Source: a virus
Taxonomy: Duplodnaviria > Heunggongvirae > Uroviricota > Caudoviricetes
Virus record (IMG/VR): IMGVR_UViG_2886837984_000001
Span: 64,001-121,308 of that record
Strand: one strand, 5' to 3'
DNA: 57,308 bases
The position numbers and the translations under genes were made by a program. Positions 15,486 through 49,143 of this stretch are shown here, one piece after another. Numbering within the stretch: position 1 is the stretch's first letter; each line of letters starts with the position of its first letter. Under the pieces are notes generated by a model, which made no database searches, was not told where the DNA came from, and saw nothing but the letters and a program-made list of their open reading frames with translations.

Positions 15486-16138
15486 TCAAAGAGTTGTTGA
15501 AGAATCAGGATGGCGTCAAGCGCCTTCAACAGTATCGGTACAAGTGTTTCTCGGTTCTAACATTAGAACAGAAGAAGAAGGTGTGTCGCTCGTGGATACG
15601 TGGGAGTGACGCAAAATGGATCTCGTGCTACTACGAAATCTCAGAAAAAGACGTGACGACCTGTACGAAAGAGCTTTATCAGATGGCGATGTCTCTCGGA
15701 CAAAAGAACGAACTGACACGAGACTTCGTCTGCTCGGACGGACTCGTTTATCTGATCGGTGAGATGTTGAACCATTGGAGTGTAAGAGAATTGCGTAAAG
15801 AGATCGGACTTACGACCAAGCAGCTTAGTGCGATTCGTGAACGTTATGAGCTGTTGACAGGGATTCCTTCAAAGCGAACGCCCGATAAAGACCGCAATCA
15901 TTTTAGCTTTGTGCGAGATGAGATTTCTCGGACGAGCCCTCATGACGGGTCGAAGATGAAGGTGCTGGACTGCCCGCTTCAGATGACGACGGAGCTCAAG
16001 TTCGACGGGATGGACTTCACGAAGGTCAAAGATTCGTACTACTGTATGGAATCATTGCGCGAATTCTTCGGATATGACGGAGACGACAACGGAAATCCGA
16101 AAGGGTTATACGAGATTCGCTACGAATACATCGATTGA
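15482..16138 (+). CDS. Hypothetical protein, paralogue of the previous gene
   Basis: 218-aa ORF with ATGA overlap. Confidence 0.75.
   Translation: MIKELLKNQDGVKRLQQYRYKCFSVLTLEQKKKVCRSWIRGSDAKWISCYYEISEKDVTTCTKELYQMAMSLGQKNELTRDFVCSDGLVYLIGEMLNHWSVRELRKEIGLTTKQLSAIRERYELLTGIPSKRTPDKDRNHFSFVRDEISRTSPHDGSKMKVLDCPLQMTTELKFDGMDFTKVKDSYYCMESLREFFGYDGDDNGNPKGLYEIRYEYID
15554..15569. repeat. Single consensus 16-bp palindrome inside a CDS
   Basis: GTTCTAACATTAGAAC. Confidence 0.7.
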
Positions 16139-16169
16139 TACCGAAATCAAAAAGTAAAGGTGTGAGAAA

Positions 16170-19100
16170 GTGAATAAGAACTATGTCATCTACCATTTAC
16201 ATACGGATATGAGTAACGCCAACTCGACAGGAGCGGATTCGATCACGAAGGCCGAGGAGTATATCGAGAAGGCGAAAGAGTTGGGTATGAAGGCCATCGC
16301 ATTCAGCGAACACGGAAACATCCTGGGATGGGTCAAGAAGAAACAGATGACCGAGAAGGCAGGACTGAAATATATCCATGCCAACGAGATCTATATGACC
16401 GAAACGCTCGAGGAGAAGGTTCGGGACAACTATCATATGATGTTGATCGCACGAAACCTCGAGGGCGTCAAAGAACTGAACAAGTTATCCTCTGCTGCTT
16501 ACGAGAAGGACGGTCACTACTACTATGACCCCCGTGTATCGATGGACGAGGTGATGAATACCTCTGACAACATCATCGTGACGTCTGCTTGCCTTGCGAG
16601 CTTGCTCTGGAAGGGTCGGGTACGTCTCGGACGACAAGACGCTGCAAACCGATTTATTGCGTGGATGAAAGAAAACAAACACCGCTGCTTCTTAGAGGTT
16701 CAATATCACGACATCGACGACCAAAAAGAGTTCAACGAATATTTGGTCAACCTCAGCAAAGAGACGGGTATTCGTCTGATCGCAGGGACAGACACCCACG
16801 CGCTCGACCAAGATCATTACAAGGCTAGACAGCATTTGATGAAGGCGAAGGGTGTCAGCTACGGATACGAGGATGATTTAGACCTCACGATGAAGTCGTA
16901 TGACGGACTGGTCGAGATGTTTGAGAAGCAAGACGTCCTCGAGAACGAGCTCATCTTGGAAGCAATCGAGAACACGAACGTCATGGCCGATATGGTCGAA
17001 GAGTTTGAGCTCGACTACTCGTACAAGTATCCGAAGATCAGCAAGAACTCTGAGAAGGAATTTCTAGATGCCATCAACAAAGGGATCAGAGAGCGCGGAT
17101 TACATAAACTACCAAAAGAGAAACGTAAGATGTACAAAGAACGTGTCCAAGAAGAGCTGAACGTCTACCGCGAGGTCGGGGCGATTGACTACATGTTGCT
17201 TCAGAAAAACATCTTAGACTACTCACGATCGATCGGAGCGGAGCCTGGATACGGACGTGGTTCGGTGTCGGGCAGCTTGATTGCCTACCTGATGAAGATC
17301 ACGGAGATGGATTCCGTGAAGCATAAGTTGAGCTTCCCACGGTTCATGAGTAAAGAGCGAATCAGTCTTGCGGATATCGATATTGACAACGAAGTCTCTC
17401 GACGTCAAGAGATTATTGATTATGTAGCGAGCATGGAGAACAGATTTGAGAACTTCTACTTCTCTGAAATTCTAACGTTTCAAACACTAAAGGCAAAAGG
17501 CGCGATCAAGATGGCCTTCAAGCCATTCGGTTACTCTGAGGCTGATTGCAACGACATCACGAGAGATCTAGACGAAACGAAAAAAGAGCGTTTTGAAAGT
17601 CAGTGGCGTTCGTTGGGCGAAAAATACCCCGAACCGATGTGGTTTGCCGAACGATTACGTGGCGTCATTCATGCAATAGGGTCTCACCCGTCTGGATTCG
17701 TCGTAGCACCCCTGCCTATCGATGAGAATATGGGGACAATCTATACTAAAGATTCATCACGTCGAGTTTCAGCAATCAATATGAAAGACATCGATGGACT
17801 CAACTGGATCAAGTTGGACATTCTCGGTTTGAGCTCAATTGAGCTTACAAATGAGGTTTGCCGAATGGCTGGTATCGAGCGGTTGACACCGGACAATGTT
17901 GATGATCAAGATGAGGCCGTATGGAGATCGATGTTAGAGTCCACGCTCTCATGTTTTCAATGGGAATCAGACACAGCTTTCTCATATTACAAAAAACTGT
18001 TCAATCCTAACACCGTATCCTTGCTAAAAGAAAAAATTGGCGACGATCTTACATACATGAATTTATTCTCTATTGGCAACGCCGCTATCCGTCCATCAGG
18101 AGATTCTTATCGAGACGAATTAGCAAGCGGGGTGACAGTTGATTATGGACACAAGGCACTCAACGACTTCCTTGCTCCCACCGCTTCTCGGATGATTTTC
18201 CAAGAACAAATCATTGAATTTCTCAAAGAGTTTTGCGGCTACTCGGGAGGAGACAGCGATTTGGTGCGTCGCGCCATTGGAAAAAAAAGGAAGGAAGATT
18301 TGGATATCTACATTCCTCAAATCAAAGAGCGGTTCATTGAGACGATGACGTCGAAGCACAACGTCACAAAAGAACGAGCGGAAGAGCTGATTGTCTCGTT
18401 CCTTCAGGTCATCCATGACGCCTCGAACTACGGATTCTCAATCAACCACTCGCAAGCCTATTCGTACATCGGATATATCAACGCCTACTTACGGTATTAC
18501 TATCCGCTCGAGTTCGCAGCAGTACAGCTCCAACTCCTTGCCGACGATGCCAAGCAGGGATATATGGAGAAATCGGCAGAGGTGATCCAATATGTCGCTC
18601 AACGTGGGATCAAACTGTCTCCTCCGAAATTCGGATTCGCCAAATCGAAGTATTCGGTCGACAAGGAGTCGAAGACGATCTTCAAGGACACGAAATCCAT
18701 CAAAGGTGTCGAGTCCGTCGCGGGAGACAATCTGTACGCGCTCCGAGACAACAAATATGAGTATTTTGTCGACCTTTTGATCGATATCGAAGAAAACGGC
18801 CTCTGTAACAAAACGAGTTTGGTAAATTTGATAAAACTCAACTTTTTTGACGTACACGGGCAGAATATGAAGCTTTTGGAGATTTATGACGAATTTAAGG
18901 GCGGTAAGGCGCAATATAAGAAATCGCACAAGGAGAACACTAAAAATAAGCGCCGTCAGTTACTTCGAGAATTCGAGAGTAAGGTAATCGACCGTTCGTT
19001 ACCGCTCACAGAGCAAATAGTGGCCGAATTGGAGCTCCTGGGATATGTCCAAACCCTCCCAAAGAGCACCGATAAAACCCTTCTTTTAACGGTCAATATC

Positions 19101-19373
19101 GACACGAAATACAGCCCGAAACTGACGGTCATCCGTCTTTCCGACGGGAAGTCGCGGACGATGAAGGTATCGAAGCAGACGTTCTATGACTATCAGAACG
19201 GCGGACACGCCCGAGTGAAGCTGGGCGACATCATCCGTATGAAGCAGACGAACATGAAGAACCGCTCGAAGTTCGTCAAAGGTGAGAACGGTGAACCTGG
19301 CGAGTGGGTCAAACTTCCCGAGAAAGAATTGTGGCTTGCACAGTTTGAGGTGGCGAATCATGAGTTTTGCTAA
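16170..19373 (+). CDS. dnaE: DNA polymerase III alpha subunit (phage DnaE)
   Basis: PHP domain YHLHTD/AFSEHG, GYGRGSVSGS, ADIDID, GSHPSG, KLDILGL, FSINHSQAY. Confidence 0.95.
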   Translation: MNKNYVIYHLHTDMSNANSTGADSITKAEEYIEKAKELGMKAIAFSEHGNILGWVKKKQMTEKAGLKYIHANEIYMTETLEEKVRDNYHMMLIARNLEGVKELNKLSSAAYEKDGHYYYDPRVSMDEVMNTSDNIIVTSACLASLLWKGRVRLGRQDAANRFIAWMKENKHRCFLEVQYHDIDDQKEFNEYLVNLSKETGIRLIAGTDTHALDQDHYKARQHLMKAKGVSYGYEDDLDLTMKSYDGLVEMFEKQDVLENELILEAIENTNVMADMVEEFELDYSYKYPKISKNSEKEFLDAINKGIRERGLHKLPKEKRKMYKERVQEELNVYREVGAIDYMLLQKNILDYSRSIGAEPGYGRGSVSGSLIAYLMKITEMDSVKHKLSFPRFMSKERISLADIDIDNEVSRRQEIIDYVASMENRFENFYFSEILTFQTLKAKGAIKMAFKPFGYSEADCNDITRDLDETKKERFESQWRSLGEKYPEPMWFAERLRGVIHAIGSHPSGFVVAPLPIDENMGTIYTKDSSRRVSAINMKDIDGLNWIKLDILGLSSIELTNEVCRMAGIERLTPDNVDDQDEAVWRSMLESTLSCFQWESDTAFSYYKKLFNPNTVSLLKEKIGDDLTYMNLFSIGNAAIRPSGDSYRDELASGVTVDYGHKALNDFLAPTASRMIFQEQIIEFLKEFCGYSGGDSDLVRRAIGKKRKEDLDIYIPQIKERFIETMTSKHNVTKERAEELIVSFLQVIHDASNYGFSINHSQAYSYIGYINAYLRYYYPLEFAAVQLQLLADDAKQGYMEKSAEVIQYVAQRGIKLSPPKFGFAKSKYSVDKESKTIFKDTKSIKGVESVAGDNLYALRDNKYEYFVDLLIDIEENGLCNKTSLVNLIKLNFFDVHGQNMKLLEIYDEFKGGKAQYKKSHKENTKNKRRQLLREFESKVIDRSLPLTEQIVAELELLGYVQTLPKSTDKTLLLTVNIDTKYSPKLTVIRLSDGKSRTMKVSKQTFYDYQNGGHARVKLGDIIRMKQTNMKNRSKFVKGENGEPGEWVKLPEKELWLAQFEVANHEFC

Positions 19374-19821
19374 GAAGAAAACGACAACACCGAAGGCGAG
19401 CAAGTACAAGGCGAAGAAGACGGTCGTGGACGATATCAAGTTCGACTCCAAGATCGAGTCACAGTATTACCTGCTTCTCAAACAGGAGAAGGAGAGAGGT
19501 CTGATCAAAGACTTCTCTCTCCAACCTGCCTACGAGTTGCAGTCGAAGTACGAATACATGGGCGTGAAACGTCTCGCCATCAAGTATGTGGCCGACTTCC
19601 TGATCTACCATAACGACGGAACTGAGGTGGTCGTAGACGTCAAGGGACAGCCGACGACGGACGCCAAGCTGAAGCGCAAGCTGTTCGAGTACAGATACCC
19701 CGACAAGCATCTACGGTGGATCGTGTGGGTCGCCAAGCGCGGTGGATGGATCGATTACGACGACAACGAGCGGATGAAGCGTGAAGAGAATAAGCTGAAA
19801 AAGAAAATGGAAACAAAATGA
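19360..19821 (+). CDS. DUF1064-like PD-(D/E)xK nuclease
   Basis: SKYKAKKTVVDDIKFDSKIE..YY, QPAYEL, IKYVADF, VVDVKG. RBS GAGGTG. Confidence 0.8.
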   Translation: MSFAKKKTTTPKASKYKAKKTVVDDIKFDSKIESQYYLLLKQEKERGLIKDFSLQPAYELQSKYEYMGVKRLAIKYVADFLIYHNDGTEVVVDVKGQPTTDAKLKRKLFEYRYPDKHLRWIVWVAKRGGWIDYDDNERMKREENKLKKKMETK

Positions 19822-19849
19822 AAGATGGTGGGCATATGCTCACCATCTT
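19822..19849. terminator. Hairpin between convergent gene blocks
   Basis: AAGATGGTGGGC-ATAT-GCTCACCATCTT. Confidence 0.65.
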
Positions 19850-20349
19850 CTTCGTTTAGCTTCTTCTCTATCCGCAATGATCTTATCCACCTTGCCTTCC
19901 ATCTTCTGAAAGTATCGAGGCGTGTTTGCGTCCTTGTTCGTATAGTATCTCGACCGACGATAATGATATTCGATATAGTCCGAGAACACATATATGAAAG
20001 GGGTTTTCGTCGTGGCCGAATAATCCTTGATCTCTCCATACAGTGCCGTCGGGATCAGAAGGCTTTTGACTTTCCAGTCGATCTTTTTGACACGAATCGG
20101 GATCAAGGGGGGAGTGTAGTCGCCGCTCTCGACGTTTAAGGGGAAGTCGTCCGCGATCTCTTTCATAAGATCGTTGACGGGAGTACCCGAATAGTAAGAG
20201 AGCATCTTAAGGATCTTATAGTCCCGCTCGTACACCTTCACGATCTTCCCTCTATCCTTGTTTCGTCTTGCCATATCCTCTTCGGTCAAGATGCTCGACT
20301 TCTTGTCCAACACCTTGTTCTTGTCAAAATTACTGTTTAACTTCTTCAT
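19840..20349 (-). CDS. Putative centromere-binding protein with two ribbon-helix-helix-like segments (type Ib ParB analogue)
   Basis: Directly downstream of and overlapping parA. Flexible basic N-tail, then IVKVYERDYKILKMLSYYSGTPVNDLMKEI and SLLIPTALYGEIKDYSATTKTPFIYVFSDYI. Confidence 0.6.
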   Translation of the reverse strand: MKKLNSNFDKNKVLDKKSSILTEEDMARRNKDRGKIVKVYERDYKILKMLSYYSGTPVNDLMKEIADDFPLNVESGDYTPPLIPIRVKKIDWKVKSLLIPTALYGEIKDYSATTKTPFIYVFSDYIEYHYRRSRYYTNKDANTPRYFQKMEGKVDKIIADREEAKRRRW

Positions 20350-21238
20350 TGCTCTCACTCATTTCCTTGATCCGCAGCAACACCTCGTCCACGACGGTCT
20401 CGAAGTGGGTCATCACCTCTTTATCCCAATTGTCGTACTCCCCAAAGTTGGTTGTGTCGGGATTAAAAGACTTCCCTTTTTCCGCCGCCTTGCGCATACG
20501 GGTCTCGATCATCTTCGGCACTAAGACATTTCTGTGGTACGCATACAGGCCATGCTTGGCGTACTTGCTGATCCGTGTCCGATAAGGGATGAACGCCCGG
20601 AAGAACGTGTCGTAGTCCGATAAGTCGTACTCTCGCGCAATCTCCACCATCGTATCCTTGTTGTCCTCACGTTTGTTCACCAGGACTCCTAAGAACTGAA
20701 GGTCTTTGTTGACGTGCTGATTGATCCGTTCGGCCACATCATAGAAGTCTCCGATTCCCTCGAACGAATATGCGCTCACCTCGCTCACGACGATAAAGTA
20801 GTCGCTAGCAGCCAAAGAGCTGTTCAAGAACACGCTGAACGTCGTAGGCGGTGTGTCAAAGAAGATGTAATCATAGTCATCCTCAATCTTTTTGACCATG
20901 TTTCGGAAATACGTGAACTCATTCTTTTCGTTCAATAAAAGACCGAAATTGGCCGTGTCTTGCGAGCTTGGAATGAAGTGGAAATTGACCGTCGGTCTCA
21001 GGATCGATGGCAACAGGTCTTTTGATTTCAGACCATCGAACACGGTTGTTGCGCTCTCAGAGAATCCGTCCTCATAGAACGTTTTAAACAATGTTCGTGT
21101 CGAGTTGGATTGAGGGTCAAAGTCCATAAACAATACCCTCTGACCTCTTTTGGCGAGCTCATACGCCACGAGCAAAGATGTTGTCGTCTTCCCGGCCCCA
21201 CCCTTAGAGTTACCTATCGTTAGCTTCTTTGCCATCAT
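20330..21238 (-). CDS. parA: ParA/Soj-family partition ATPase
   Basis: Deviant Walker A GNSKGGAGKTT, DFDPQSN, YIFFDTPP. No N-terminal HTH extension (type Ib). Confidence 0.93.
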   Translation of the reverse strand: MMAKKLTIGNSKGGAGKTTTSLLVAYELAKRGQRVLFMDFDPQSNSTRTLFKTFYEDGFSESATTVFDGLKSKDLLPSILRPTVNFHFIPSSQDTANFGLLLNEKNEFTYFRNMVKKIEDDYDYIFFDTPPTTFSVFLNSSLAASDYFIVVSEVSAYSFEGIGDFYDVAERINQHVNKDLQFLGVLVNKREDNKDTMVEIAREYDLSDYDTFFRAFIPYRTRISKYAKHGLYAYHRNVLVPKMIETRMRKAAEKGKSFNPDTTNFGEYDNWDKEVMTHFETVVDEVLLRIKEMSESNEEVKQ

Positions 21239-21277
21239 CTCACACCCCTAATTGTTGATACTTTTATATTACCTTAA

Positions 21278-21338
21278 GTTCTAACATTAGAACATTAAAA
21301 GTTCTAATTGTAGAATATATAAGATACAACGTTAGAGT
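21278..21338. repeat. Palindrome array 1, at the parA promoter (3 copies)
   Basis: Copies start at 21278, 21301 and 21323 (third degenerate). They overlap a candidate minus-strand promoter TTGACG-18-TATCTT. Confidence 0.85.
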
Positions 21339-21426
21339 TTAATGCGTCAAAATATGGCTCTAACAAACAATTAAAGTATATTATTTCAGATACCTTAATT
21401 AAAATAAAAAAAGAACCATAATGCAA

Positions 21427-21684
21427 TTAGGATTCGATAAACCCCACGATTTCGTCAACCAGTTCTGCGTTGGGCGTGTACAGTTCTCCGTCGACAGAAG
21501 GCCAGTCAATCGCGACCAACGTAGACAAGTAGCTATCCGAACCAATGTTTGTCAGGATGACGATCAACCCGTCTTCCTTCCCGACAAACACATCAGACTT
21601 TTCGGAATGTCCGATGATCCTCCGTGTCGCCATGTATTCTCCCCATATATCAGACGAGACTTCTTTTTGCGCTAAAATCTTCAT
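21427..21684 (-). CDS. Small hypothetical protein
   Basis: RBS GGAGGTG before ATG 21684 within ORF 21427-21825. Confidence 0.65.
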   Translation of the reverse strand: MKILAQKEVSSDIWGEYMATRRIIGHSEKSDVFVGKEDGLIVILTNIGSDSYLSTLVAIDWPSVDGELYTPNAELVDEIVGFIES

Positions 21685-21945
21685 TTCATCACCTCCATTT
21701 TCAAACCTTGCGTGAAATGAACATTTCACGCAAACATACCGACCTAAATAAGCCGTTTCAATAAAACAAGATCCATACAAGCCATCCATTTGCATCGAAA
21801 CCGTATGTCGTGCGTCTTGATACATAGATTTTCGTATGAGACAGGGTTACATAATTAATTATTTAGAAACCAGAAGTGGATCTTGGAAATGGATATCTGC
21901 CATTCCTAACCTCATGCCTTTATCTTTCTCAACGACAACAAAAGA

Positions 21946-21954
21946 TGTGGATAA
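21946..21954. promoter_or_regulatory. DnaA box
   Basis: TGTGGATAA, the reverse complement of consensus TTATCCACA, in an AT-rich intergenic region. Confidence 0.55.
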
Positions 21955-21999
21955 CTTGTATCGCAAAAATATAAAATAGTATTGGTGTCCACGTATTTA

Positions 22000-22037
22000 T
22001 ATCTAATGTTAGAAAATAAATATTACAAAGTTAGAAG
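22000..22037. repeat. Palindrome array 2 (2 degenerate copies)
   Basis: TATCTAATGTTAGAAA (22000) and ATTACAAAGTTAGAAG (22022), 22-bp phase. Confidence 0.65.
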
Positions 22038-22105
22038 ATAAAATGTACAGAAACCCTTTAACAGAGCCGTTTTTGTCCTACCTACACACCGACAATTAAA
22101 CAAAT

Positions 22106-22137
22106 AAAAAACGACGACTCTCAAAAGAGAATCGCCG
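22106..22137 (-). terminator. Minus-strand intrinsic terminator
   Basis: CGGCGATTCTC-TTTT-GAGAGTCGTCG + T6 on the minus strand. The two G-U wobbles only work in this orientation. Confidence 0.8.
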
Positions 22138-22144
22138 TCAAGAC

Positions 22145-22173
22145 TTGCATTTCAGAAATTTTAGCTATACAAT
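22145..22173 (+). promoter_or_regulatory. sigmaA-type promoter facing the ORF-free structured region
   Basis: TTGCAT-17-TACAAT. Confidence 0.65.
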
Positions 22174-22206
22174 TAACTCAACAACTGAATTAAGACGCAA
22201 ACCTAC

Positions 22207-22215
22207 TGTGGATAA
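22207..22215. promoter_or_regulatory. DnaA box
   Basis: TGTGGATAA, same orientation as the box at 21946. Confidence 0.55.
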
Positions 22216-22469
22216 CTTTTCTGACGGCTGCAACCTTCAGATCAGAATCCTTAACTCTTGAAACAACAAAGCGTTGCAAGAATACAAGAAAAACTTTTCC
22301 TACGAGTTTTTTCTTAAATTCATTGTACCTTGCAGCGCGGAAAAATTCAAGAGAAGTTGGTCTATTAGCCATGCCTTTTTTAGAAAAAGTGCATTTTGGC
22401 ATAGACCTTTTTGCGTTGCAAGGAATTGCCTGATACCTTGTCTTAAAAACTGACAGAGGCTAGTTGGTG

Positions 22470-23225
22470 CCTCGTGCGTCCGTACACAAACGGAATGGGA
22501 GCTACCCCTCAATCAACGGCCACATGCGATCGGAAACGATACGATCATGTGTGGTGACTTTTATCTCGAAGCGATCTCCCAATCGGTCGCTCGAGAGGGT
22601 GATAGCTACCATAAAAACGCTGTACGAGGACGGATGATGTCTCTACGGAGACGAAGGATCACACATAAGTACGTTGCCAAACATCGTAAACGAGTCCGTA
22701 ATGGACGCCTGTGAGAACGGGCGGACGAAACAGAATGGACGAATCCCGAAAGGGTAGGGCGCGGAAACCGCAAGGGGTCATTTGAGTGTGTAGTGTGGTC
22801 ATAGGGAAACCTTAGGATTGATTGGGCTGATACGACGGAAACCGAGCATGAAGCAAGGGATGAACCGATCAGAATCTCTTCCTTCTTGCACCCTGTAAAA
22901 AATTTTTACGGGATGCAGGAAGGAATTTTCTGTCCACCGTTTCCGTCATTTCGCTTCAGGATGATGTGTTCTCCATCGAGGTCAAGTGTTAACTGTCCCT
23001 TTGGGACAGAAAATTCCTTAAGTAATTAAGTAATTGAATGAGCGAAAGCGAATGACTTCGCAAAGCGAAGAAGAGGTTTATTAGTCTGTGCTACGAGGGA
23101 TACGAGTCTAGCGAAGTCTGACGAAGTGTTCCGCAGTAGCGAGCAATGAGTGTTTGGCGTAAACGCCGAAACACGAAGCGGTAGGGGAGAGTAGATAAGC
23201 TAAGGCAGATCGACCGCTTAATCCG
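22470..23225 (+). ncRNA. Candidate large structured non-coding RNA
   Basis: No credible ORF. Many stems with GAAA loops (22529-22540, 22745-22754, 22803-22812), a cUACGg loop (22639-22652), long stems, and G-U pairs favouring the + strand. Confidence 0.55.
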
Positions 23226-23344
23226 TCAGGATTTCAGGGAGATCTAAAAGGACTGAGATGAAGAAAAGGGAAGTTTTTACCACTGAATTGATTATTATTT
23301 ACATGAGGTATCTGAAATAAAAGAGAGGTTTTAATCCATAACGC

Positions 23345-23379
23345 AAAAAAAATGCGGACACCCCCGAAGGAATGCCCGC
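23345..23379 (-). terminator. Terminator ending the lysis/late transcript
   Basis: GCGGGCATTCC-TTCG-GGGGTGTCCGC + T8. Confidence 0.85.
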
Positions 23380-23385
23380 TCGTAT

Positions 23386-23694
23386 TCAATTTCCTAACTG
23401 TTCCTTGACGTCGACGATGACCTTCTCAAGCATCACCTTGTCGACGTCTACGCCGATATCTTCGAGCTTGAGACGACCGAACTCGATCAAGAAATCGATA
23501 TCCTGAGTCTGCTCGATCTCGAGACCTTGTGTCTTCGCCATGTCGACGAGGAAGTCCAAGACCGCCTCCTCCTCGATGACGTCCGCAGGGACGAAACCGC
23601 CATACGATTTCTTCCAAAGCTTCGCCACCACGCCTAACACGGCCACGATACCCGTCGCGACGATCGCTAACAGGTTTTCCATGATCATTTCCAT
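23386..23694 (-). CDS. Membrane-anchored lysis-cassette protein (holin LL-H-like)
   Basis: One N-terminal TM helix, acidic soluble tail, located after the holin. Confidence 0.5.
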   Translation of the reverse strand: MEMIMENLLAIVATGIVAVLGVVAKLWKKSYGGFVPADVIEEEAVLDFLVDMAKTQGLEIEQTQDIDFLIEFGRLKLEDIGVDVDKVMLEKVIVDVKEQLGN

Positions 23695-23706
23695 ATGTAA
23701 CACCCC

Positions 23707-24270: not shown

Positions 24271-24288
24271 GGCTCACCCCTCTCTTTA

Positions 24289-24933: not shown

Positions 24934-24966
24934 TAAAATCTCTCCTTGTTTTCGTAGTTGTATATG

Positions 24967-24991
24967 AAAAAGACCCGTCCGAAGACAGGTC
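24967..24991 (-). terminator. Intrinsic terminator
   Basis: GACCTGTC-TTCG-GACGGGTC + T5. Confidence 0.8.
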
Positions 24992-25003
24992 TCTGTTGAA
25001 CGA

Positions 25004-35213: not shown

Positions 35214-35235
35214 AAAAAGACGGCTCTAGGCCGCC
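35214..35235 (-). terminator. Intrinsic terminator after the Dit gene
   Basis: GGCGGC-CTAGA-GCCGTC + T5. Confidence 0.7.
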
Positions 35236-35264
35236 CTTTCTTGTTAATTATGTTCTATATGAAT

Positions 35265-35346
35265 GTTCTAACATTAGATTATTAATCTTCTACAATTAGA
35301 TGTTTTAGTTTCTAATGTTAGAACCTTTATATACCAACGTTAGAAC
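35265..35346. repeat. Palindrome array 3 (4 copies)
   Basis: Copies start at 35265, 35287, 35309 and 35331: exact 22-bp phase. Confidence 0.9.
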
Positions 35347-36140: not shown

Positions 36141-36165
36141 AAAAAGGAGAGCCGAAGCCCTCCTT
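36141..36165 (-). terminator. Intrinsic terminator after the TMP
   Basis: AAGGAGGGC-TTCG-GCTCTCCTT + T-run. The Dit RBS follows immediately. Confidence 0.8.
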
Positions 36166-42100: not shown

Positions 42101-43159
42101 CAGATAGCCTCCTAGAGATTTGGCCGTCGAATACATAAGTTCGGTCTCTTCCGCCGAACGGTTCGTGTTGGCCTGAAGATTCTCGTAACGTTCTGCAAGC
42201 ATGTCGATCGTGTCAGAATTATCGCTATATGCTTTAACAAGCTCTTTTTGTTCTTGTTTTGCTTTCGCGACTTCCGCACGTTGTTTTGTGAACGCAGAAA
42301 TGAGAGCTCCGATTGCTACGGTAGCCGCTGCGATTCCTGCCCCGATGACAAGAGATGTTCCGATTGCCGCCATCGTCGTCACCATGAATCCTTTAACGGC
42401 CGTTCCTGCAATACGGAATCCTCCGGCTGTGGCGTGAGCCGCACCTTTGACTTTATCCAAAGACGTCGCGACGTTACCATTTATCGGGACGACCTTTTGA
42501 TTTTCGTTCCGACTTTTCACAACAGCAGCGGTGGCATCCTGGTAAGAAGATGTCACACCTTGCAATTTCTCTCTGAAAGCGGCCAAAGGCTTCTCGTCGA
42601 ATACGGCATTACGGACTCCACCGTTCATGAGCGTCGTAAGACCACCCGTGACCCCTGCGAGCATCGTGAAACCTGCGAGCAAGTTTCCTTTAGAGAAGTC
42701 CAGCGAGATCAATGCGTTGATGCTGTTGACCATGTAACGAAGGTCGTTCGTGACGGTCGTGATCATATCGACGAACACGGTGTTTCCTGCCGACAATGCG
42801 AGTTCTTCCCACGCCACCTTGAGCTTGTTGACCTTGGCTTGCGCCGACTCGAGATAACGGGCGTTCTCTTGCATGGCCGACCCTTGCGAGTTGATAGACG
42901 TGTTCGTCGCTTTGACGGCGACGTCGTAGTTTTGCATGAGACCAAGAAATCTCGAGATTTGGAAGCGGCCTGCCAATTGAACAGCAAGGTTTTGTTGTTG
43001 TGCATTCGTGAGATTGTTCCACTTGCCAGAAAGATCTTCTAAGATTCTTGCGTAAGCCCGTGTTGTTCCGTCTTCTTCAAATACTTCGATTCCGACGTCT
43101 TTTAAAGAACTTACTGATCCACTCATTGTTACACGAGAGAAAATTGTCTTGAGCGAGTT
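36164..43159 (-). CDS. Tape measure protein, exon 3 (contains M23 peptidase, glucosaminidase/lysozyme-like domain, two SH3b-like domains)
   Basis: Starts NSLKTIFSR. HEGIDIAN...YGHL...STGPHVHYE. YGVDPALAMAIAMFETG...NNPGGL. SH3b-like GQTGWV and KTGYV segments. Confidence 0.9.
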   Translation of the reverse strand, partial: NSLKTIFSRVTMSGSVSSLKDVGIEVFEEDGTTRAYARILEDLSGKWNNLTNAQQQNLAVQLAGRFQISRFLGLMQNYDVAVKATNTSINSQGSAMQENARYLESAQAKVNKLKVAWEELALSAGNTVFVDMITTVTNDLRYMVNSINALISLDFSKGNLLAGFTMLAGVTGGLTTLMNGGVRNAVFDEKPLAAFREKLQGVTSSYQDATAAVVKSRNENQKVVPINGNVATSLDKVKGAAHATAGGFRIAGTAVKGFMVTTMAAIGTSLVIGAGIAAATVAIGALISAFTKQRAEVAKAKQEQKELVKAYSDNSDTIDMLAERYENLQANTNRSAEETELMYSTAKSLGGYLPELVTHVDELGRTHLSTSVSAQEYIKSLKEMQQLEAMKKSDKNEDSLVDNAEQLEKANKDYEKYLNKKKMTDEEYARDMEMAQGAITDSAIYSAGADDVGKARERDKRGELAAERLLKQSQMERIKLTRDQITLSIQSSDEYANLAGEQQKLVDSLVTNIDQDIVDKALKNAVDENGEFNVDKLLVEIEKVKMDILDISNILTDMPSFDETLFKSASGNKQMEEATKFINTYAQKIVELENEQKRILGAANVATDSGLTGSYLAQYQALEQAKTDVANSGRQIIQVASEEGHAINTATAAIVMQNAKMEETQSAAYDALAGVSDLTEGNENLGESAETAATGIGMLEEALGYQKDALRDVVGTVDAYNDVLHKSAEGHQFTASEMMGLIDKYPELIDAFDVSNGMVTVNTGLIEELRETQRLQFEEKLKQATAQRLQDEFTARFSAELTADRIAGITSIAEAEKALVLVKQETAKQIADIENKMNSIDPDDPNYGRQMYAGDMIGRLTADLSSTDEFINGMKKSEENARKIVATVTTSTQDLYNANKAAEEANKDSSKSEKNKQDTISRSTYLTNKYTEAIDKATLAVQKQSAFKNKYANGSKAYIKALESEIKAMDKQKKSVTDYIKALQDANKSKQVIASTGVQTSTQEVVTDANGNIVARGGTTNSYDVAYNGSNSSATGGFQKTGTRSLSGWSGAKISSSYGSMRTINGKTWQHEGIDIANKRGTPLESNVNGTVIHAGGANKSLGIPSEYGNNVVIQDTSGIFHIYGHLDKIEAKKGAKVGVGQRIGTVGNTGNSTGPHVHYEQRSSMGKWNTNLLNPTVAARQAVYSKRNTYGYSSSASSSISKASTSSSSFNKVSSGVGQGAFKGQEHLFNKYGEKYGVDPALAMAIAMFETGNGTSNGVKNYNNPGGLMSPSSNWTKQTVFKSLDEGISAMISNLSRNYITKGLTSIAEIQKKYAPNGAGNDPTGLNAHWKNGVTSMYTKVSQGKSPSTSAASVSSTQVDQEKKIADQTKAQAEKAQNLAEQKAEEIRQIEELNKIEDSRQQIILDYLNARANTYKSMYDRYGKDEELVRANMETTVEYTRQSLALYEKLQNNARLQRRAVELEIIQMEKDRKGAYYKQLSLSRQAEFTARLDDLRWVLKQEIQEERQAAMEIARERTEIRNKLYENQMRDLKKNQDFFQRQLAIMDGESNTDLVKKYVTTVEQEKTERKLWDIKKRQLEAERAILSEVRKKYGASSKEYEQQLEFVKRYSEELLSLEDSVNSLNSAQKDMLGGFSDSMIETIREALEAQRDAEIKSIEKIQQEREKAIQRERNVRQNAHEKTMKELDKEREKMNDFFDERIKRLDEQNDERSHQKQMDEYSEREQEIRSSINRISMDDSFEAKAKRKELMKELQTLQEEREEYLYQRDFEKQKEAIDKERELYEKNLDDKQKVEDENYEKFEEDMDRREEAESALFDKMLEDLNKYYDDVLNDERKWNEIREQAMKGNFDEVKRMANEMLIDTSKGFRTMYDNLGKTYQDVLKDLSYLYDDTEYETIALADTISKALGDIVHTSQSSFDSLGQVLQTNYIDKLKEALDLLSQLTGKDFDTDYKNPSSGDDLSQEAPVTGLSMYAAQTGSAKPVSVRADANGSSKVIGSLVDGKGYEVLEQTGTHSKVKLSNGQTGWVSNSELSTSKQSNSWGVAMSHTRASELNQASAPINELLKQYSVTAKAHNARVDSISYDSGKRVYDDMVTDSTNRIKSKQQSALQKYYSAYESASTNEDRNKALDEYVKSLSDMQSEIIRAKREFDALYESLKGSTTIDKNAKTSSNAALYANPYISVEGIMTSIPKGTSIKILRDRGLMYEVQYGDKTGYVNKNFVGSFASGGMYTGEFNGGMPAILHKKELVLNQEQTKNMLKTVEFTDRLISPLRSLINKMQSVKGSSAPTVHIENINNDFSNNEIKDGKEASDDFMKRTMNLINNKYGKR

Positions 43160-43438
43160 CATGTCTGTTACTTTCTTTTGTCCTAATATTCTAATGTTAG
43201 AATATATAAGTTCTAATGTTAGAACAAAATACTGACCAACATATACCTGAAACCCGTTGGCGGAGAGGCGCTTCAACCTCTCTCTTGCAGTCTCCTGCAA
43301 AGTTCAGACTATCGCTTCACATACACATGGGTATGTGTCTTTTCGTTTAGTCGTTCACGCTGCCATTACGCTTGCGCCCTGTTGTCCCATATGAGGGAGT
43401 TCCAAGTCGATTAGAAAAGATTTTACATCGGCAACTCT
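43160..43438 (-). mobile_element. Group I intron TMP-I2 (279 nt, no ORF)
   Basis: Minus strand ATCGGT|agagttGCCGAT (6-bp P1 with U-G). TCTTTTC/GAAAAGA P3. GTGAACGACTA / GATAGTC P7. Ends ...acatG|AAC. Splicing restores ANIG|NSLKTIFSR. Confidence 0.9.
43188..43225. repeat. Palindrome array 4 (2 copies) inside intron TMP-I2
   Basis: ATTCTAATGTTAGAAT (43188) and GTTCTAATGTTAGAAC (43210), 22-bp phase. Confidence 0.9.
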
Positions 43439-43592
43439 ACCGATATTCGCTCCTGAATCTCGTGTTACTTCCTGTACTGCCGTGATATAGCCAAGTAGTT
43501 CGTCCATCGATACGCCGTAAGTGTTTGCGGCGGCCGCAGATCGACCCATCGCGATTGCCAGGTCTTTTGTAGTTGTAGCATACGAATTATCT
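43439..43592 (-). CDS. Tape measure protein, exon 2 (154 nt)
   Basis: (V)DNSYATTTKDLAIAMGRSAAAANTYGVSMDELLGYITAVQEVTRDSGANIG: TMP core motif. Confidence 0.9.
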
Positions 43593-43872
43593 CATGGAAA
43601 TTATTGTAAAATAACTAATAATTTCTAACTGTTACTTTCACCTTTCGGCTACTGACCCTTTTGGGCGGATATACATTTCTGCATACCTCTCATGCTTATT
43701 CTGAATCGCATGAGGTCGGACTGTACCTTTATCCGTTCTGGATAGGTGATGGCAGTCTCTAGCGGTCTCCTGTTTAGGATTTCCGTCGGTATTGCCCTTT
43801 GAATCAGATAGGGGTTTCACCGATATACACCATTTCGTCAATCACATTCCTGTGAAGGGAGGCAGACATTTT
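43593..43872 (-). mobile_element. Group I intron TMP-I1 (280 nt, no ORF)
   Basis: Minus strand GAGGT|aaaatgtctGCCTC (P1). TATATCGGTGAA, AATACCGACGG, CTAGAGACTG / ACAGTCC. Ends ...tccatG|A GAT. Splicing restores LNEV-DNSY. Confidence 0.9.
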
Positions 43873-46376
43873 ACCTCGTTCAACTTATCGATGATCATCA
43901 TCGATTTTTCCGCTTCTACGTTAAAGACCGACATTCCGGTGATCAACGTCTCAGACATCTCTTGTGCCGACAAATCGGATACGTTCGATGCGATGACAGA
44001 TGTCTTCGTCAATGCGTTCAACTGTTCTTCCGAATAGTTGCCCGACTTCGCGAAGTTCTCCATCGCATAGTTGATATCTGTGACCGTCTTCCCGAGTTCT
44101 TTCGCCATCTCGATGTTTCCGGCCAAGACCTCGTCAAAGTTCGTGTCGGCGTCCATGACACGTTTCAAGTTCGTCATCTGCGTGTCTACCTGCATGATGA
44201 TGTTGTACATGCTGGTCAGACCTTGGATCGGCGCATAGAACGCGCTCGAGGCGAGCATCCATACCGGGAACTTCTCGAATGCGGTACGCATCGAATAACC
44301 GACCGTGTCGGTCGCCCCGCGCAACTCTTTCATGTTGTTCCGTAGGCGGACGGTACGCGCCTGAATCTCGTCCATTTGCGTCGTCCAGTTTTTGTATGTC
44401 GTGTTACCTTTGTCGTCTGTAATCGACTGGATGAGCGAAGCGCCCTTATCTCCTCGTCTGACCGCCGAAAGACGATCTTCCGCTTCTTTGGCCAACGCTT
44501 GGATTTGTTTATATTCTTCCTTGTACCGACCTCTCATGCCTCGACTATACGATTGACGAACCTCTGCCAACAACGATTCACGTTGGGCGAACATCGAAGA
44601 TGCGCTTGCGATGTCTTCTTTTTGTCCGACACCACCGCGATAACGCTCCGACATCTCACGCTTGAGTTGACTATATTTTTTACGGATTTCGTCGATCTCT
44701 TTGATCGTTTTCGCAGAATTGATATTAACCGAGAAATCGTCAAGACGTTTAACGTCAGCTCCGAGAAGCTTATATTTGGATCTAATATCGTCAAGACCGT
44801 CAATCATCCCTCGTTTCTTGCCAAGGAATTCTTTATCGACCCCCGTCTGACCACGAAGCATCTCCCCATACTCTTTCTTGAACTCGGCCATCCGCTTGGA
44901 CGTCGGGTCGTTCTTGAGCATTTCGAGTGATTGCTGCATCGCTGAGACTTGTCTCTCTGTATATTCTACGCCTTCCTTATCGGCCATACGTCCGTCTTTT
45001 TTCATATCGTTGATACGCTTCTGATAACGAGCCGCATCGTTCATTACACGGACTTCAGCCGCGAGGTCATTAATACCCACCCCGATGACCGCATTATTTT
45101 CTGGTGTCAGCGTCTTACGGATACGTTCCCGCATCGATTTGATCCGTTTCTCGTCGACCAGTCCGTTGTTCTCGACCCAATCCATACGGGACAGCATGGC
45201 CGGAACCTGGTTGAACGCAGCCTTCATGCGTCGAATCTCGGCGTTGACCAACTTCTTCTCATCGACCGTGTTGACACCCGAGATCTTCTTATCGAACTCT
45301 GCGAAGATCTTCTGTTTCGACTTTCCGAGTTTGACACCGGCGTCTTCTAGTCCTGCCGTGATGGTCATCAACTGAGACAGTTCGTTCTGAAGTCCCTTGC
45401 GAAGCGTCTTGTGTTCGAACACTTCGCCAAGATTTTTGGTTTTTTCTTCCATGACATCCATCGTCGAAGCAAATTCTTTTAATGATTTTGTGTCGTAGAG
45501 GTCTGCACCTTGGAGCGTCTTCTCGAACTTCTTCATATCCTTCTCGAGATCCGTCCGGTCGCCGTTGTTGTTGAAGCGGTTCTGTTTGAAGCCGTCGATC
45601 TGTTTCTGAACCTCTTTTTGACGCTTCAGAAGCTTCTCTTGCTCGGCTTCGATACGTTTGTAGTCGCGGACGACCTGTTCATTCGTCTGCATGAGCATCT
45701 GGGCGATATCGCCTGTCGTCTCGTCGACGACACCGCGCATCTCATAAAACGTCTTCTTGAGAGATCCGACCGAATCTGTATATTCGACCGCAAAGCCCTT
45801 CAGTTCGCCTTGAGATTTTTTGGCCGTACTTTTCTTAACACGATTCCCCATCGCCTCGATGTCACGCTCGACGTCTGCGATATCCTTGTACATCTTCTTA
45901 ATATCTTTATTGAGGTCGTCTGTCAGCGTCTTGACGCCCTTGGCATCCGATTGGTTCTGCGCGAGAGCCGGATTCGTTTTAGCCGCTTCAGCAGATGATA
46001 CCGATTGAAGGTTCGTCTTGATCTTGATCGGTTCGGAGAAGATGTTCTGAATCTTCTTCTTCGAATCTCTCGCCATCTGTTCGATCTCTTTGAGCGTCGA
46101 CTGCATCGCGTCACGATGTTCCTTACGAGCTCCACGGAGGGCAGATGTATAGGTACTGATGATCTTCCTCGTGTTCTTCTCGATCGCTCCCTCGATATCT
46201 TCGGTCATCGATTTCATCATCTTGTCGAAGTTGGCCGTGTCGACCTGTAAAGAGACGTTAAAATTCTTGGTCAACTTTTGTAGGTCGGACAGAGCGGTCT
46301 CCATATTCGTTTTCGATACGGCACGATCGACATCGAAAGCCATGACTAAAGAGTAATTTTGAGCATTATTAGCCAT
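43873..46376 (-). CDS. Tape measure protein, exon 1 (spliced gene 9654 nt, about 3217 aa)
   Basis: Long helical ORF ending in the TP901-type TMP core (VDTQMTNLKRV...NVSDLS....IIDKLNEV). Confidence 0.88.
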
Positions 46377-46474
46377 TAAAATTCCCCTTTTATTCTTATA
46401 TTTTTGTCGTTATTCGTTCTTCTTCTCGATGCTACTGCCGACATCTTGATACCGGTCAGCAGCAGTTTCCAAAA

Positions 46475-46915
46475 TTAGAGTGCCTTTTCGATTCGTTCAT
46501 AGACGAGCTGTTCGATGATTGCTTCGTTTCCGCTCAATTCAATCTCCGACTCATCCATTGCAACGAGCAATGTTTGGAGTTCTTCCTGATACTTCTTCCC
46601 GTCGAGAACAAAAGTCTCTTCGGACAGGTCTAGCTTCTCTTTCGCGAACTGTTGGATGTCCTCGATGTCATATGCGTCGAACATCTCGCCGTCCCGCTCC
46701 TTCTTGATGATGACGGGGTTTCCGTCCTCGTCTTTTAGGGCGAACTCTTCGGCAAGATCGCTCATATCCTTCTGGAACGCATCCATCGCGGACTCGAGCT
46801 CTTTGATGATCCGCATACGGTGACGGTTCTGTTTGCCTTTCAGCTTCAGACCCAACAGGAACCCGTGGAATCCTTCCAACTCAAACTTTTTCATTTGAAG
46901 TTCGTTCATCTTCAT
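46475..46915 (-). CDS. DUF1617-like phage protein
   Basis: LKLKGKQNRHRMR....KDEDGNPV pattern. Confidence 0.6.
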   Translation of the reverse strand: MKMNELQMKKFELEGFHGFLLGLKLKGKQNRHRMRIIKELESAMDAFQKDMSDLAEEFALKDEDGNPVIIKKERDGEMFDAYDIEDIQQFAKEKLDLSEETFVLDGKKYQEELQTLLVAMDESEIELSGNEAIIEQLVYERIEKAL

Positions 46916-46924
46916 CTTCCTCTC

Positions 46925-47905
46925 TTAGTTGAACACGTCATCGATATCGTCTGAGTCATCCTTGACGACATAGATCTTCGTGGTCTCTGTGCTGTTGTGT
47001 CCCAACAATGCGCCCGCCGATTCGAGGGATTTGCCCTCGTATACGACGAGGTTTGTCGCCCGGCTCGAGCGGAACAAGTGGGGGTGAACCCGTCGTCCGA
47101 CGATCTCTGTGAACGTGTCCGTACACCAGTCGTTGAACGCCGTGAGACTGAGCGGTTCGACCTTGCCTTTTCGTTTATAGACGAAGACCGCTTCGCAGTC
47201 ATCCTCGCCACGAACCTCGATCCAACGACGGAGGTAATACATCGCCTTGTCGTCGAACTGGAAGACGCGCACCTTGCCCTCTTTGCCTCGGCCTTTGGCA
47301 CGAATCTCGTGGGTGACATAGTAATCCTTCTGGTTGTCCTTCTTGTCACGCGCCTTCGCGTAGGTGACGACCTCTTTTCTGAGCTGGATCGCCTCTGCGC
47401 GACGACACCCCGTCATATAGGTGAACCAGATATAGGCGAGCTTCTGATGCTCCCCGCGACGCTCGAGTTCGTCGGACAGCTTGATGAGCTCGTCCGGCGT
47501 GAGCGGTTCTTTCTTGTGGATCTTGTTCAACGGGACGGCAGGGATGGCGCGCGTATAGATGTTCTTGAATCGCGGATACTCGTCATCATAATAGAGCTCC
47601 ATGTAACCGCATAGTGAGCTCACGGCCGACCGTTTGAACTTGATGGCCGACGAACTGAGTCCTGCGTTGATGAGATAGTTTTGGAACAGAAGGGCGTCCT
47701 TCGGTTTCAGCTTATGTAGTTCACGGTTCGCGCAACGTTCTTTGATGAACCAAAAGAACTGCCGGAGACCGGAACGGTATTGTTTGAGCGTCTGCGGCGA
47801 GAGGTGTTGCTGTTGTTCCAGGAACTCTTCAGCGATGTCGCGGTTGAACTTGACGACCTTCTTCCACATCTCGTCGGTGACGATTGCTAGCGCCATATTT
47901 CTCAC
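46925..47905 (-). CDS. Tyrosine recombinase within the tail operon (SPbeta YomM-like position)
   Basis: MTGCRRAE, KGRGKEGK, HPHLFRSSRAT, LGHNSTETTKIY. Confidence 0.9.
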   Translation of the reverse strand: MRNMALAIVTDEMWKKVVKFNRDIAEEFLEQQQHLSPQTLKQYRSGLRQFFWFIKERCANRELHKLKPKDALLFQNYLINAGLSSSAIKFKRSAVSSLCGYMELYYDDEYPRFKNIYTRAIPAVPLNKIHKKEPLTPDELIKLSDELERRGEHQKLAYIWFTYMTGCRRAEAIQLRKEVVTYAKARDKKDNQKDYYVTHEIRAKGRGKEGKVRVFQFDDKAMYYLRRWIEVRGEDDCEAVFVYKRKGKVEPLSLTAFNDWCTDTFTEIVGRRVHPHLFRSSRATNLVVYEGKSLESAGALLGHNSTETTKIYVVKDDSDDIDDVFN

Positions 47906-47923
47906 TTCCTTGTCGATAGTTTT

Positions 47924-47983
47924 GTTCTAACGTTAGAACAAACAGTTTCTAACATTAGAATATTAAAGTTCTAACATTAGAAC
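47924..47983. repeat. Palindrome array 5 (3 copies) upstream of the recombinase
   Basis: Copies start at 47924 (perfect palindrome GTTCTAACGTTAGAAC), 47946 and 47968. Confidence 0.9.
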
Positions 47984-47984
47984 T

Positions 47985-48506
47985 TTAGAACGGGAGATAA
48001 TCGTCCCGAACCACTTTGTTGTCAGTGTTATTGAGCTTGTTACTGGTGATCGCCTGAGGCATGGTCTTCTGAAGTTGTGCCATGACGGAGGGGGTGAAGG
48101 GGCGGGCGAGTTTGCTTCGTGCGATCTGCGACTTCTTCCACGAGTACCCTTCGCCGGACTCGATGATCGGTAAGAGTCTTACGTTCGACGGTTCGTATGT
48201 ACGGGTGAACTTGTCGTAGTTCTGACCTGTTGCCGAGTTGGTGATTCTGATCGACCCTTTGTGGAAGTCGACGACCTGGCTCTGTTTGTGCGCCAGACCG
48301 TAACTTCCCCCGACGCCCATCCCGTCGAAACGACGGCGGTAGAGGGTCGGGTTGTATCGTTCGTACACGAGCTCTTCGATGTTGTTGACCATCGCCTCGG
48401 TGATAATGTAGCGCCAGGCGTCCCGGTTGATGATGGCGTTATACCAGATCGGTTCGAGCGCCTTGAAGAGCTCCTTGTCCTTCTTGATGAACGTGTGGTT
48501 AGACAT
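47985..48506 (-). CDS. Hypothetical tail-region protein
   Basis: 173-aa ORF coupled to the upstream gene. Confidence 0.65.
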   Translation of the reverse strand: MSNHTFIKKDKELFKALEPIWYNAIINRDAWRYIITEAMVNNIEELVYERYNPTLYRRRFDGMGVGGSYGLAHKQSQVVDFHKGSIRITNSATGQNYDKFTRTYEPSNVRLLPIIESGEGYSWKKSQIARSKLARPFTPSVMAQLQKTMPQAITSNKLNNTDNKVVRDDYLPF

Positions 48507-49011
48507 TTGTCATCAATTTCTTGATCTCATCATTGGCGATCGGCATTTCCTTGAACGCTTTCTCGATGAGTGTTGCGGTGCGCGAGGCGACCGCCAATTG
48601 TTTATATCGGTCGAGCATCCGCTCGTAGATCTTCTCTGTCTCCGTCTGAGGGAACGCCTTGGCGATCTTCTCGTAATAGTCGGTGTCGATCATTTCCTTC
48701 AAGGCCGACAGGACGTCCTCGACCTCCATCTGGTGCATCTTCTCCGGGAACTCCGTCGTCGTGAAATGCTTGATCATGAAGCACATCATGACGTCGTCGA
48801 TGAAGTGGGGGTCTAGCATGTCGTCGAGCTCCAATTCCTGCGCCTTGTTGACGACGGCCAACATCTCACCGAGCATCGTGTCGATCTCCGACGGGCGGAT
48901 CATCTGACGGACGTCGACGTACAGTTCTTCCTCGACGAGCCAGACTCGTTCCGTGACCTTATATAGTTCGTTGAGACCGTTCAAGTCCTTCATACGTAGT
49001 TTCTTAGCCAT
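48499..49011 (-). CDS. Hypothetical protein, possible tail assembly chaperone
   Basis: Acidic helical ORF after the major tail gene. RBS AAAGGTGG before ATG 49011. Confidence 0.6.
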   Translation of the reverse strand: MAKKLRMKDLNGLNELYKVTERVWLVEEELYVDVRQMIRPSEIDTMLGEMLAVVNKAQELELDDMLDPHFIDDVMMCFMIKHFTTTEFPEKMHQMEVEDVLSALKEMIDTDYYEKIAKAFPQTETEKIYERMLDRYKQLAVASRTATLIEKAFKEMPIANDEIKKLMTNV

Positions 49012-49038
49012 TCTTGCGACCACCTTTTTTTCAAAGAG

Positions 49039-49143
49039 ATTCCAATGTTAGAACGTTGTACGGTTCTTCCATCAGTTATGAAAGTTCTAATGTTAGAACA
49101 TTTAATTTCTACAATTAGAACTTTTAGATTCTAATGTTAGAAC
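49039..49143. repeat. Palindrome array 6 (4 copies)
   Basis: Copies start at 49039, 49084, 49106 and 49128. Confidence 0.9.

Follow-up and report, generated by a model that had tools for sequence, protein, structure and literature searches.

The stretch of DNA studied here (57,308 nucleotides (nt), in the following referred to as the window) comprises bases 64001–121308 of one 121,308-bp phage record (IMG/VR record IMGVR_UViG_2886837984_000001), which features direct terminal repeats at its ends and represents a large, SPbeta-like phage of Exiguobacterium. The analysis addressed a set of phased palindrome arrays located in the promoter of the partition gene parA and at the starts of late transcription units, as well as the protein predicted to read them, namely a ribbon-helix-helix (RHH) protein encoded directly 3' of parA. 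Gene content and gene order are SPbeta-like, comprising an HU-like gene, a PhoH-like gene, a long non-coding stretch, YonK (PF09642), a YonJ-like exonuclease, terminase, portal, a YomU-like tube protein, YomO, YomN, a yomM-like tyrosine recombinase, the tape-measure gene, Dit, tail proteins, and lysis genes. All of these SPbeta-type genes are encoded on the minus strand and span the region from genome position 6083 leftward over the record ends to approximately window position 23400, and the ParA gene and its small 3' neighbor come after the lysis genes on the same strand. The arrays and the two partition genes were located at the following positions of the window:

19840–20349, minus strand: gene of the ParA partner, a tandem RHH protein of 169 amino acids (aa), overlapping the parA stop
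20330–21238, minus strand: parA, encoding a Walker-type ParA/Soj ATPase of 302 aa without an N-terminal helix-turn-helix (HTH) domain
21278–21338: array P, three palindromes (21278, 21301, and a degenerate one at 21323), 5' of parA
22000–22037: array O, two degenerate palindromes (22000 and 22022) between two TGTGGATAACTT repeats, 5' of a small open reading frame (ORF)
35265–35346: array T, four palindromes (35265, 35287, 35309, and 35331), between the Dit-like gene and the tail gene that follows it
43188–43225: array I, two palindromes (43188 and 43210), in the non-coding gap that interrupts the tape-measure gene, the downstream exon following after about 28 nt
47924–47983: array M, three palindromes (47924, 47946, and 47968), with 27 nt between the array end and the start codon of the yomM-like recombinase gene
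49039–49143: array Y, four palindromes (49039, 49084, 49106, and 49128) with one 45-bp gap, between the terminator of the YomU-like gene and the YomO-like gene
15554–15569: single perfect palindrome within a plus-strand ORF, not kept as a palindrome in the relative at the 71% level

A preliminary description of the window had reported about 19 palindrome copies in phased arrays, and this was borne out by the motif scan. With at most two mismatches to GTTCTAANNTTAGAAC (GTTCTAA-NN-TTAGAAC), 14 matches were detected in the window as compared to 0.23 expected from shuffled sequences (100 shuffles, largest count of 1), and stepping by 22 bp recovered the degenerate copies, all previously listed copies being found again. 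Start-to-start distances between neighbors were exactly 22 bp in 12 of 14 cases, the remaining two being 23 bp and 45 bp. The linkers between the palindromes are 6 bp long and A+T-rich, and they diverge among relatives while the half-sites are kept. Extending the motif scan to the remaining genome and to relatives, as had been suggested, revealed one further array outside the window and, as described below, arrays that are conserved in position and switched together in sequence. The additional array comprises four copies at genome positions 6109–6190, directly 5' of a 53-aa ORF and the YonK homolog, that is, at the head of the SPbeta-type late operon. The whole-genome scan yielded no arrays in the approximately 65 kb of early and replication genes and one weak isolated site at genome position 7709.

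Of the eight loci, six are intergenic arrays 5' of minus-strand genes, the array at 43188 resides in the 3' part of the tape-measure intron, and the single copy at 15554 is intragenic. Four arrays are preceded by a terminator-like hairpin; in two cases, the late head and the array that follows the YomU-like gene, a U-run hairpin of this type stops 9–20 nt before the first palindrome. For three units, namely those headed by the yomM-like gene, by the YomO-like gene, and by the first gene of the late operon, the last palindrome ends 25–28 nt short of the start codon, and the remaining gap fits little beyond the ribosome-binding site. The order of terminator, array, and ribosome-binding site points to promoter or operator control of each late unit rather than to a roadblock. 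This placement also bears on the possibility that the arrays are centromeres only, without any effect on transcription, or function-less selfish repeats. Dispersed centromere sites, as attributed to N15 (Ravin et al. 2008, as cited in PMC11652158), speak for such a view. However, the arrays occur only at transcription-unit starts, in the space that separates the terminator from the ribosome-binding site, the array at parA overlaps the core promoter, mobile-element ends and target-site duplications were not found at them, and the same gene boundaries are kept in four lineages while the half-site is replaced, which makes this explanation highly improbable. Two readings of the palindromes as promoter elements were also considered: an interpretation as sigma-factor −35/−10 boxes was rejected as the principal one, both dyad halves being kept by selection, and a likeness between the half-site and CGTTAGA, the late −35 box of SPO1, was dropped as unsupported.

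Relatives were fetched from read-run and metagenome assemblies by means of the RHH protein, ParA, the yomM-like recombinase, and a 480-aa protein with a GerE-type domain described below. The RHH protein behind parA has just two detectable relative clusters among 15 billion proteins, and the representative search with it returned one other cluster only (P0006). Exact-pattern scans for two phased copies gave nothing in viral contigs and unrelated matches in genome contigs (Bdellovibrio, Chloroflexota, and Bacteroides), and single-protein locus searches with the 480-aa protein gave no match in viral and genome contigs. Lineage A', represented by a 123-kb contig, encodes an RHH protein with 71% and a 480-aa protein with 90% identity to those of this phage (lineage A), and it keeps TTCTAA-NN-TTAGAA at the parA promoter, the array-O position, and the late head, with linkers and flanks drifting. 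Lineage B' is represented by one contig of 118,762 bp, the proteins of which have a median identity of about 76% to those of this phage. It carries AACYTA-NN-TARGTT at a 22-bp phase at six positions matching the arrays described here: four copies each at the late head, at YomU/YomO, before the yomM-like gene, and at the parA promoter, three copies in the tape-measure intron, and two at the array-O position. The B' arrays were read from three 20-kb loci of the contig, with the Dit/tail array position outside this sample, and the GTTCTAA-type motif of the present phage was not found in the sampled B' loci. In lineage B (contigs of 125,889 bp and 13,677 bp), AACCTA-NN-TAGGTT occupies the parA promoter, with three to four copies in B and B', and the pair equivalent to array O likewise carries B's own palindrome. 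Lineage D (46.5-kb contig) features ACTA..TAGT-type palindromes (ATACT-N5-AGTAT) at a 21–22-bp phase at the YomO, yomM, and tape-measure positions, with five copies each at the positions of arrays Y and M. D-type sites also precede parA on contig L024, whose type C RHH protein was linked to lineage D (L029) by the similar site type and not by a shared contig.

Judged from these alignments, the positions of the arrays are conserved, while all sites have undergone a joint replacement of their sequence on at least two occasions. Since all arrays, including the one at parA, switch sequence together, a single co-evolving protein is indicated as their reader. Taken together, the comparisons provide strong evidence that the network is real, conserved, and read by one fast-evolving, two-fold symmetric DNA-binding protein of the phage. 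The earlier view that all listed copies belong to one network was therefore retained for the arrays, including the parA promoter, on the basis of the concerted switch; it was given up for the copy at 15554, which is intragenic, not conserved, and probably fortuitous, non-functional, and outside the system. A rapid change of specificity among closely related elements is a typical property of determinants of partition and immunity, as established for the ParB proteins of P1 and P7 and for the lambdoid repressors.

The reader might nevertheless be another protein of phage or host, such as a small repressor encoded by one of the unannotated ORFs, with the RHH protein and the GerE-type protein acting elsewhere. 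Most ORFs of this genome do carry no annotation. However, a host factor is excluded as reader by the concerted switch, which occurred among phage lineages of one host genus, and autoregulated ParA partners of type Ib normally bind in front of parA, so that we consider this explanation unlikely. The yomM-like recombinase was rejected as reader, since lineages with unlike palindromes share it at an identity of at least approximately 90% (a 21-member cluster at 90% that covers A, B, B', and D).

At parA, the last unit of array P ends 6 nt before the −10-like element TAATAT (21266–21271, minus strand). The corresponding element is TATGAT in A', TGGTATGAT or TGGTATTAT in B and B', and TGCTATAAT in the L024 contig, so that in all lineages a −10 element (TAATAT, TATGAT, or TGnTATAAT) is positioned 6–11 nt past the last palindrome. 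As deduced from these elements, the parA promoter is of the host sigma-A type, often with an extended −10, and its −35 region is covered by the array in every lineage. A protein bound there would therefore act as a repressor, and this geometry of autorepression was found throughout. No other iterated repeat able to serve as a centromere was detected near parAB.

ParA matches Pfam AAA_31 and CbiA from residue 4 onwards and is ParA-like according to PHROG. Its matches in the PDB to Soj/ParA and to delta of pSM19035 begin at residues 1–11 (delta with an E-value of 2e-17), and P1/P7 ParA aligns only from its residue 111–116. Hence, the ATPase is devoid of the N-terminal HTH of type Ia proteins, as is the case for type Ib. 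The product of 19840–20349 had been described as an RHH protein and can now be specified as a tandem, single-chain RHH protein. No Pfam or PHROG match was obtained for it, and its Atlas neighbors are CopG, ParG, Arc, and 56B_RHH. An AlphaFold2 (AF2) model based on six sequences consists of a disordered basic tail (residues 1–21), two strand-helix-helix units (35–75 and 94–131), and a C-terminal helix, with predicted local distance difference test (pLDDT) values between 85 and 93 in the core. The best fold matches were single-chain Arc and TraY (Z 7.2), followed by AvtR, DndE, and VirC2, and single repeats matched omega, PutA, and NikR. The arrangement resembles type Ib systems in that a small RHH protein with a flexible N-terminal tail is encoded directly 3' of parA; it departs from the norm by the two RHH units in one chain. 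Iterated repeats are present in the par promoter, where they may serve as operator and centromere. Membership in the ParB/KorB CTPase family is not indicated, since a Pfam or PHROG match is lacking and the model is RHH, not HTH.

Conservation within the RHH protein is uneven. The N-terminal tail is its best-conserved segment (70–94% identity), as would be expected of a tail that contacts ParA, itself well conserved (82%). The beta-strands are 88% and 75% identical in A' and 12–38% identical in most comparisons across palindrome types, with beta-1 reaching 62% versus B'. Residues 96 and 98 are S and L in A and A', T and N in B and B', and S and K in the D type. One chain supplies a whole RHH reading head, which fits an asymmetric half-site and two chains per palindrome. 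Beside the type-Ib-like ParA, the 169-aa protein is the only plausible centromere binder, and we infer that it is the best candidate for the reader of all arrays, a prediction in which our confidence is about even.

On this basis, the arrays would be operators of one phage-encoded protein, with a regulon comprising the parAB promoter and the start of every late unit (packaging, head, and tail). Each RHH chain would provide one complete DNA-reading sheet and read one half-site (GTTCTAA), two chains filling the 7-2-7 palindrome, and the two-turn phase of 22 bp together with the A+T-rich linkers would allow neighboring pairs to bind cooperatively on one face of the helix. The protein, made from the sigma-A parAB promoter, would repress its own operon in the manner of type Ib centromere binders. 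The same complexes would provide ParA with its partition complex, assembled at as many as seven loci and acting as a multi-site centromere, and protein bound between terminator and ribosome-binding site would keep the late units shut in the plasmid-prophage state. A plasmid life style of the prophage is hinted at by the par genes, by the direct terminal repeats of the phage record and the failure to find a serine integrase in it, and by relatives that occur as contigs of 112–126 kb in assemblies of Exiguobacterium isolates and of other read runs. Only tentatively, and with more doubt than conviction, we propose that the tandem-RHH adaptor is the master switch of the virion block, that the arrays are both a seven-locus centromere and the gates of the late units, and that the specificity switch makes incompatibility and lytic immunity one determinant.

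Several observations weigh against the RHH protein as reader and late-gene repressor, and some of them direct attention to the 480-aa protein:

Genome 9823–11265 (locus L001), minus strand: 480-aa GerE-type protein with the PHROG label 'sigma factor', located where SPbeta has yonO

Lineages B and B' share the palindrome type, yet their RHH strands are just 25% and 50% identical. A canonical-looking tyrosine integrase gene is present, making integration possible. A sigma-A promoter or −10 element comparable to that of parA was not recognizable at the late arrays, which are the sole motif common to the late unit starts. Moreover, dimers of the GerE/NarL type read 7-2-7 sites. A GerE-type protein needs late-promoter targets, and the late head leaves no room for another site before the ribosome-binding site. 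In the 480-aa protein, residues ~238–250 and the HTH recognition helix (~396–415) are hypervariable between lineages; the helix belongs to the most variable 12-residue windows and differs by palindrome type (STVVINRM in A, QSSSLNHM in B', and SSTIVNRM in D).

The main alternative, to be derived from this, is that dimers of the GerE/LuxR-type protein occupy the palindromes and activate each late unit, that the same protein shuts off or re-times the partition genes at parA during lytic growth, and that the RHH protein has another centromere. The protein is encoded at the syntenic place of YonO, beside the HU-like and PhoH-like genes, and a YonO RNA polymerase homolog was not found in the phage genome (tblastn E > 0.3). 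Only its C-terminal GerE/sigma-4-like HTH was detected, by a weak match (E 0.04), with GerE among the Atlas neighbors and no Pfam match; the AF2 model (pLDDT 47) is too poor to judge the rest of the protein, for which assignment to sigma-70 requires regions 2 and 4, or to search its fold. However, three to five phased sites and the position over the sigma-A −35 region at parA fit a centromere binder or autorepressor better than an activator. The helix changes from A to D are mostly conservative, although the palindromes differ even in half-site spacing, and the ParA partner would be left without a candidate centromere. Furthermore, Geobacillus virus E3 and Brevibacillus phage Sundance encode homologs of the GerE-type protein, yet their late heads are free of such arrays; in E3, ParA was not found either. 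Activation by the GerE-type protein is possible, albeit of limited probability.

For reading by the RHH protein, a further difficulty arises from Sundance. This phage has AAATACATGTATTT five times within 570 bp 5' of parA (L014 3820–4391), likely its parS cluster, and two isolated copies elsewhere (L014 6984 and record position 110872), and these parA-upstream palindromes do not recur at its late head. The link between par and late genes is therefore not general in this phage group and may be special to the Exiguobacterium clade. Inspection of the late heads of SPbeta, phiCD211, E3, and Sundance revealed no phased palindromes, so that the comparison outside the Exiguobacterium clade is uninformative with regard to the reader. 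In an Exiguobacterium phage lineage of greater distance, whose 480-aa protein is 45% identical, the late head has approximately seven 12-bp repeats with a GTTAAY core (L028 13300–13430); 22-bp phased palindromes were not seen there, and the repeats come before the terminator, not after it.

Additional features of the window in the vicinity of the arrays are:

21427–21684, minus strand: small ORF of 85 aa between arrays O and P, present in all relatives
43284–43503, minus strand: sub-threshold group I intron core (RF00028, 37.4 bits, E 9e-8, gathering score 50), 5' of array I
46925–47896, minus strand: yomM-like tyrosine recombinase gene, 3' of array M
49168–49192, minus strand: intrinsic-terminator-like hairpin directly 5' of array Y, with a hairpin at the same place in B' and D

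In the par region, a perfect 12-2-12 inverted repeat, TTGCGTGAAATG-NN-CATTTCACGCAA, was identified at 21708–21733, just 5' of the 85-aa ORF. Unlike the arrays, it is nearly unchanged in A', B, B', and L024, and it could represent a separate operator or a 5' RNA hairpin. The two identical TGTGGATAACTT repeats flanking array O (21946–21957 and 22207–22218) contain, on the opposite strand, the DnaA-box-like TTATCCACA. Between them, a terminator-bearing block of about 190 bp (~22040–22230) is almost invariant across lineages, and this block beside the par genes is possibly a plasmid origin or a small RNA.

At array T, a terminator-like hairpin (35214–35240) is located 3' of the palindromes, within the tail-gene leader, and not 5' as at other arrays. 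After array I, an in-frame ATG is placed exactly where the tape-measure frame resumes (DMNSLK; 43155–43165), and a transcript beginning in the array could thus encode the C-terminal ~2330 tape-measure residues without splicing. The yomM-like recombinase, encoded amid the structural genes, is among the most conserved proteins of the clade, and an array always precedes its gene. Long, sequence-conserved non-coding blocks lie 5' of the late-head array (genome ~6200–7000 on L001, with equivalents on L017 and L018) and finish in a conserved U-run hairpin (TTAGACATGAACTCGCC...GGCGAGTCTTTTTTTT). The non-coding block looks like a structured RNA at the place of the unannotated RNA that has been reported for SPbeta 5' of yonK.

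New features of this system are the tandem-RHH adaptor, the 7-2-7 palindromes at a two-turn phase, and the documented concerted switch of specificity, to which the predicted gating of every unit of the virion block, including the one with the array inside an intron, can be added. If true, plasmid maintenance and the lysis decision would be wired via one protein in a large family of Firmicutes phage-plasmids, the relatives of the group including phages of Clostridioides, Staphylococcus, Enterococcus, and Brevibacillus. Approximately 25 sites replaced in concert, in three sequence versions at identical positions, represent a clean natural experiment on how a regulator and its regulon change specificity, and the lineages would supply orthogonal protein-operator pairs.

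Compared to SPbeta, the order of HU-like gene, non-coding stretch, yonK, yonJ, and terminase on to yomM and the tape-measure gene is the same, with the first array at the start of the late operon. In SPbeta, this operon is transcribed from a YonO-dependent promoter 5' of a non-coding RNA and yonK, the sequence of which is undefined (PMC5467207). YonO is present in SPbeta, and ParA and recurrent late-region palindromes were not found there, whereas in the phage studied here a GerE-type protein replaces YonO, so that the arrays bear on late-promoter recognition in SPbeta-like phages. Regarding the fold, the 169-aa protein resembles TraY of the F relaxosome (9f0x), AvtR (4hv0), VirC2 (2rh3), and engineered single-chain Arc (1u9p), sharing with them two strand-helix-helix units per chain that form one DNA-reading sheet. 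It differs from them in having no detectable sequence similarity. VirC2 works with a ParA-family ATPase, the ParA-like VirC1. None of these four proteins is known to serve in phage partition or to read a regulon of several arrays.

With regard to function, the phage-plasmid N15 is comparable in its several dispersed centromere sites and in the documented connection of partition proteins with late gene expression; according to the title of the respective study (Ravin, Rech & Lane 2008, J Bacteriol 190:3538; cited in PMC11652158), late expression is facilitated by Sop. N15 employs type Ia SopA/SopB with an HTH-type ParB and four single inverted repeats, whereas an RHH-type binder is predicted here and the geometry suggests repression. 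The system described in this study works like KorB, yet lies outside the ParB/KorB family. KorB, with 12 OB operators on the IncP plasmid RK2/RP4, is a partition protein and a global repressor (PMC11790492, PMC5577506); common to both systems are palindromic sites scattered over the replicon at or near many promoters and, here as predicted, a centromere binder for a ParA-type ATPase that is also a repressor. However, KorB belongs to the ParB family as a sliding CTPase clamp with an HTH, exerts its effect at a distance, and recognizes single 13-bp palindromes, whereas the candidate found here is a tandem RHH protein, with phased arrays of two to five palindromes on a phage replicon and virion genes as targets. 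Finally, in pSM19035, the RHH-type ParB omega and the ParA delta act on parS1-3, arrays of 7-bp heptads before the delta, omega, and copS promoters (PMC9499535, PMC2441792). In this Firmicutes type Ib system, the repeat arrays over several promoters are bound cooperatively by omega and serve as operators and centromeres, as is predicted for the phage arrays, and its ParA delta is similar in size to the ParA of this phage. Omega is a homodimer of single RHH units on contiguous heptads; the phage system differs by two RHH units per chain and by 16-bp palindromes at a 22-bp phase, distributed as seven arrays over approximately 40 kb and located at phage late units.

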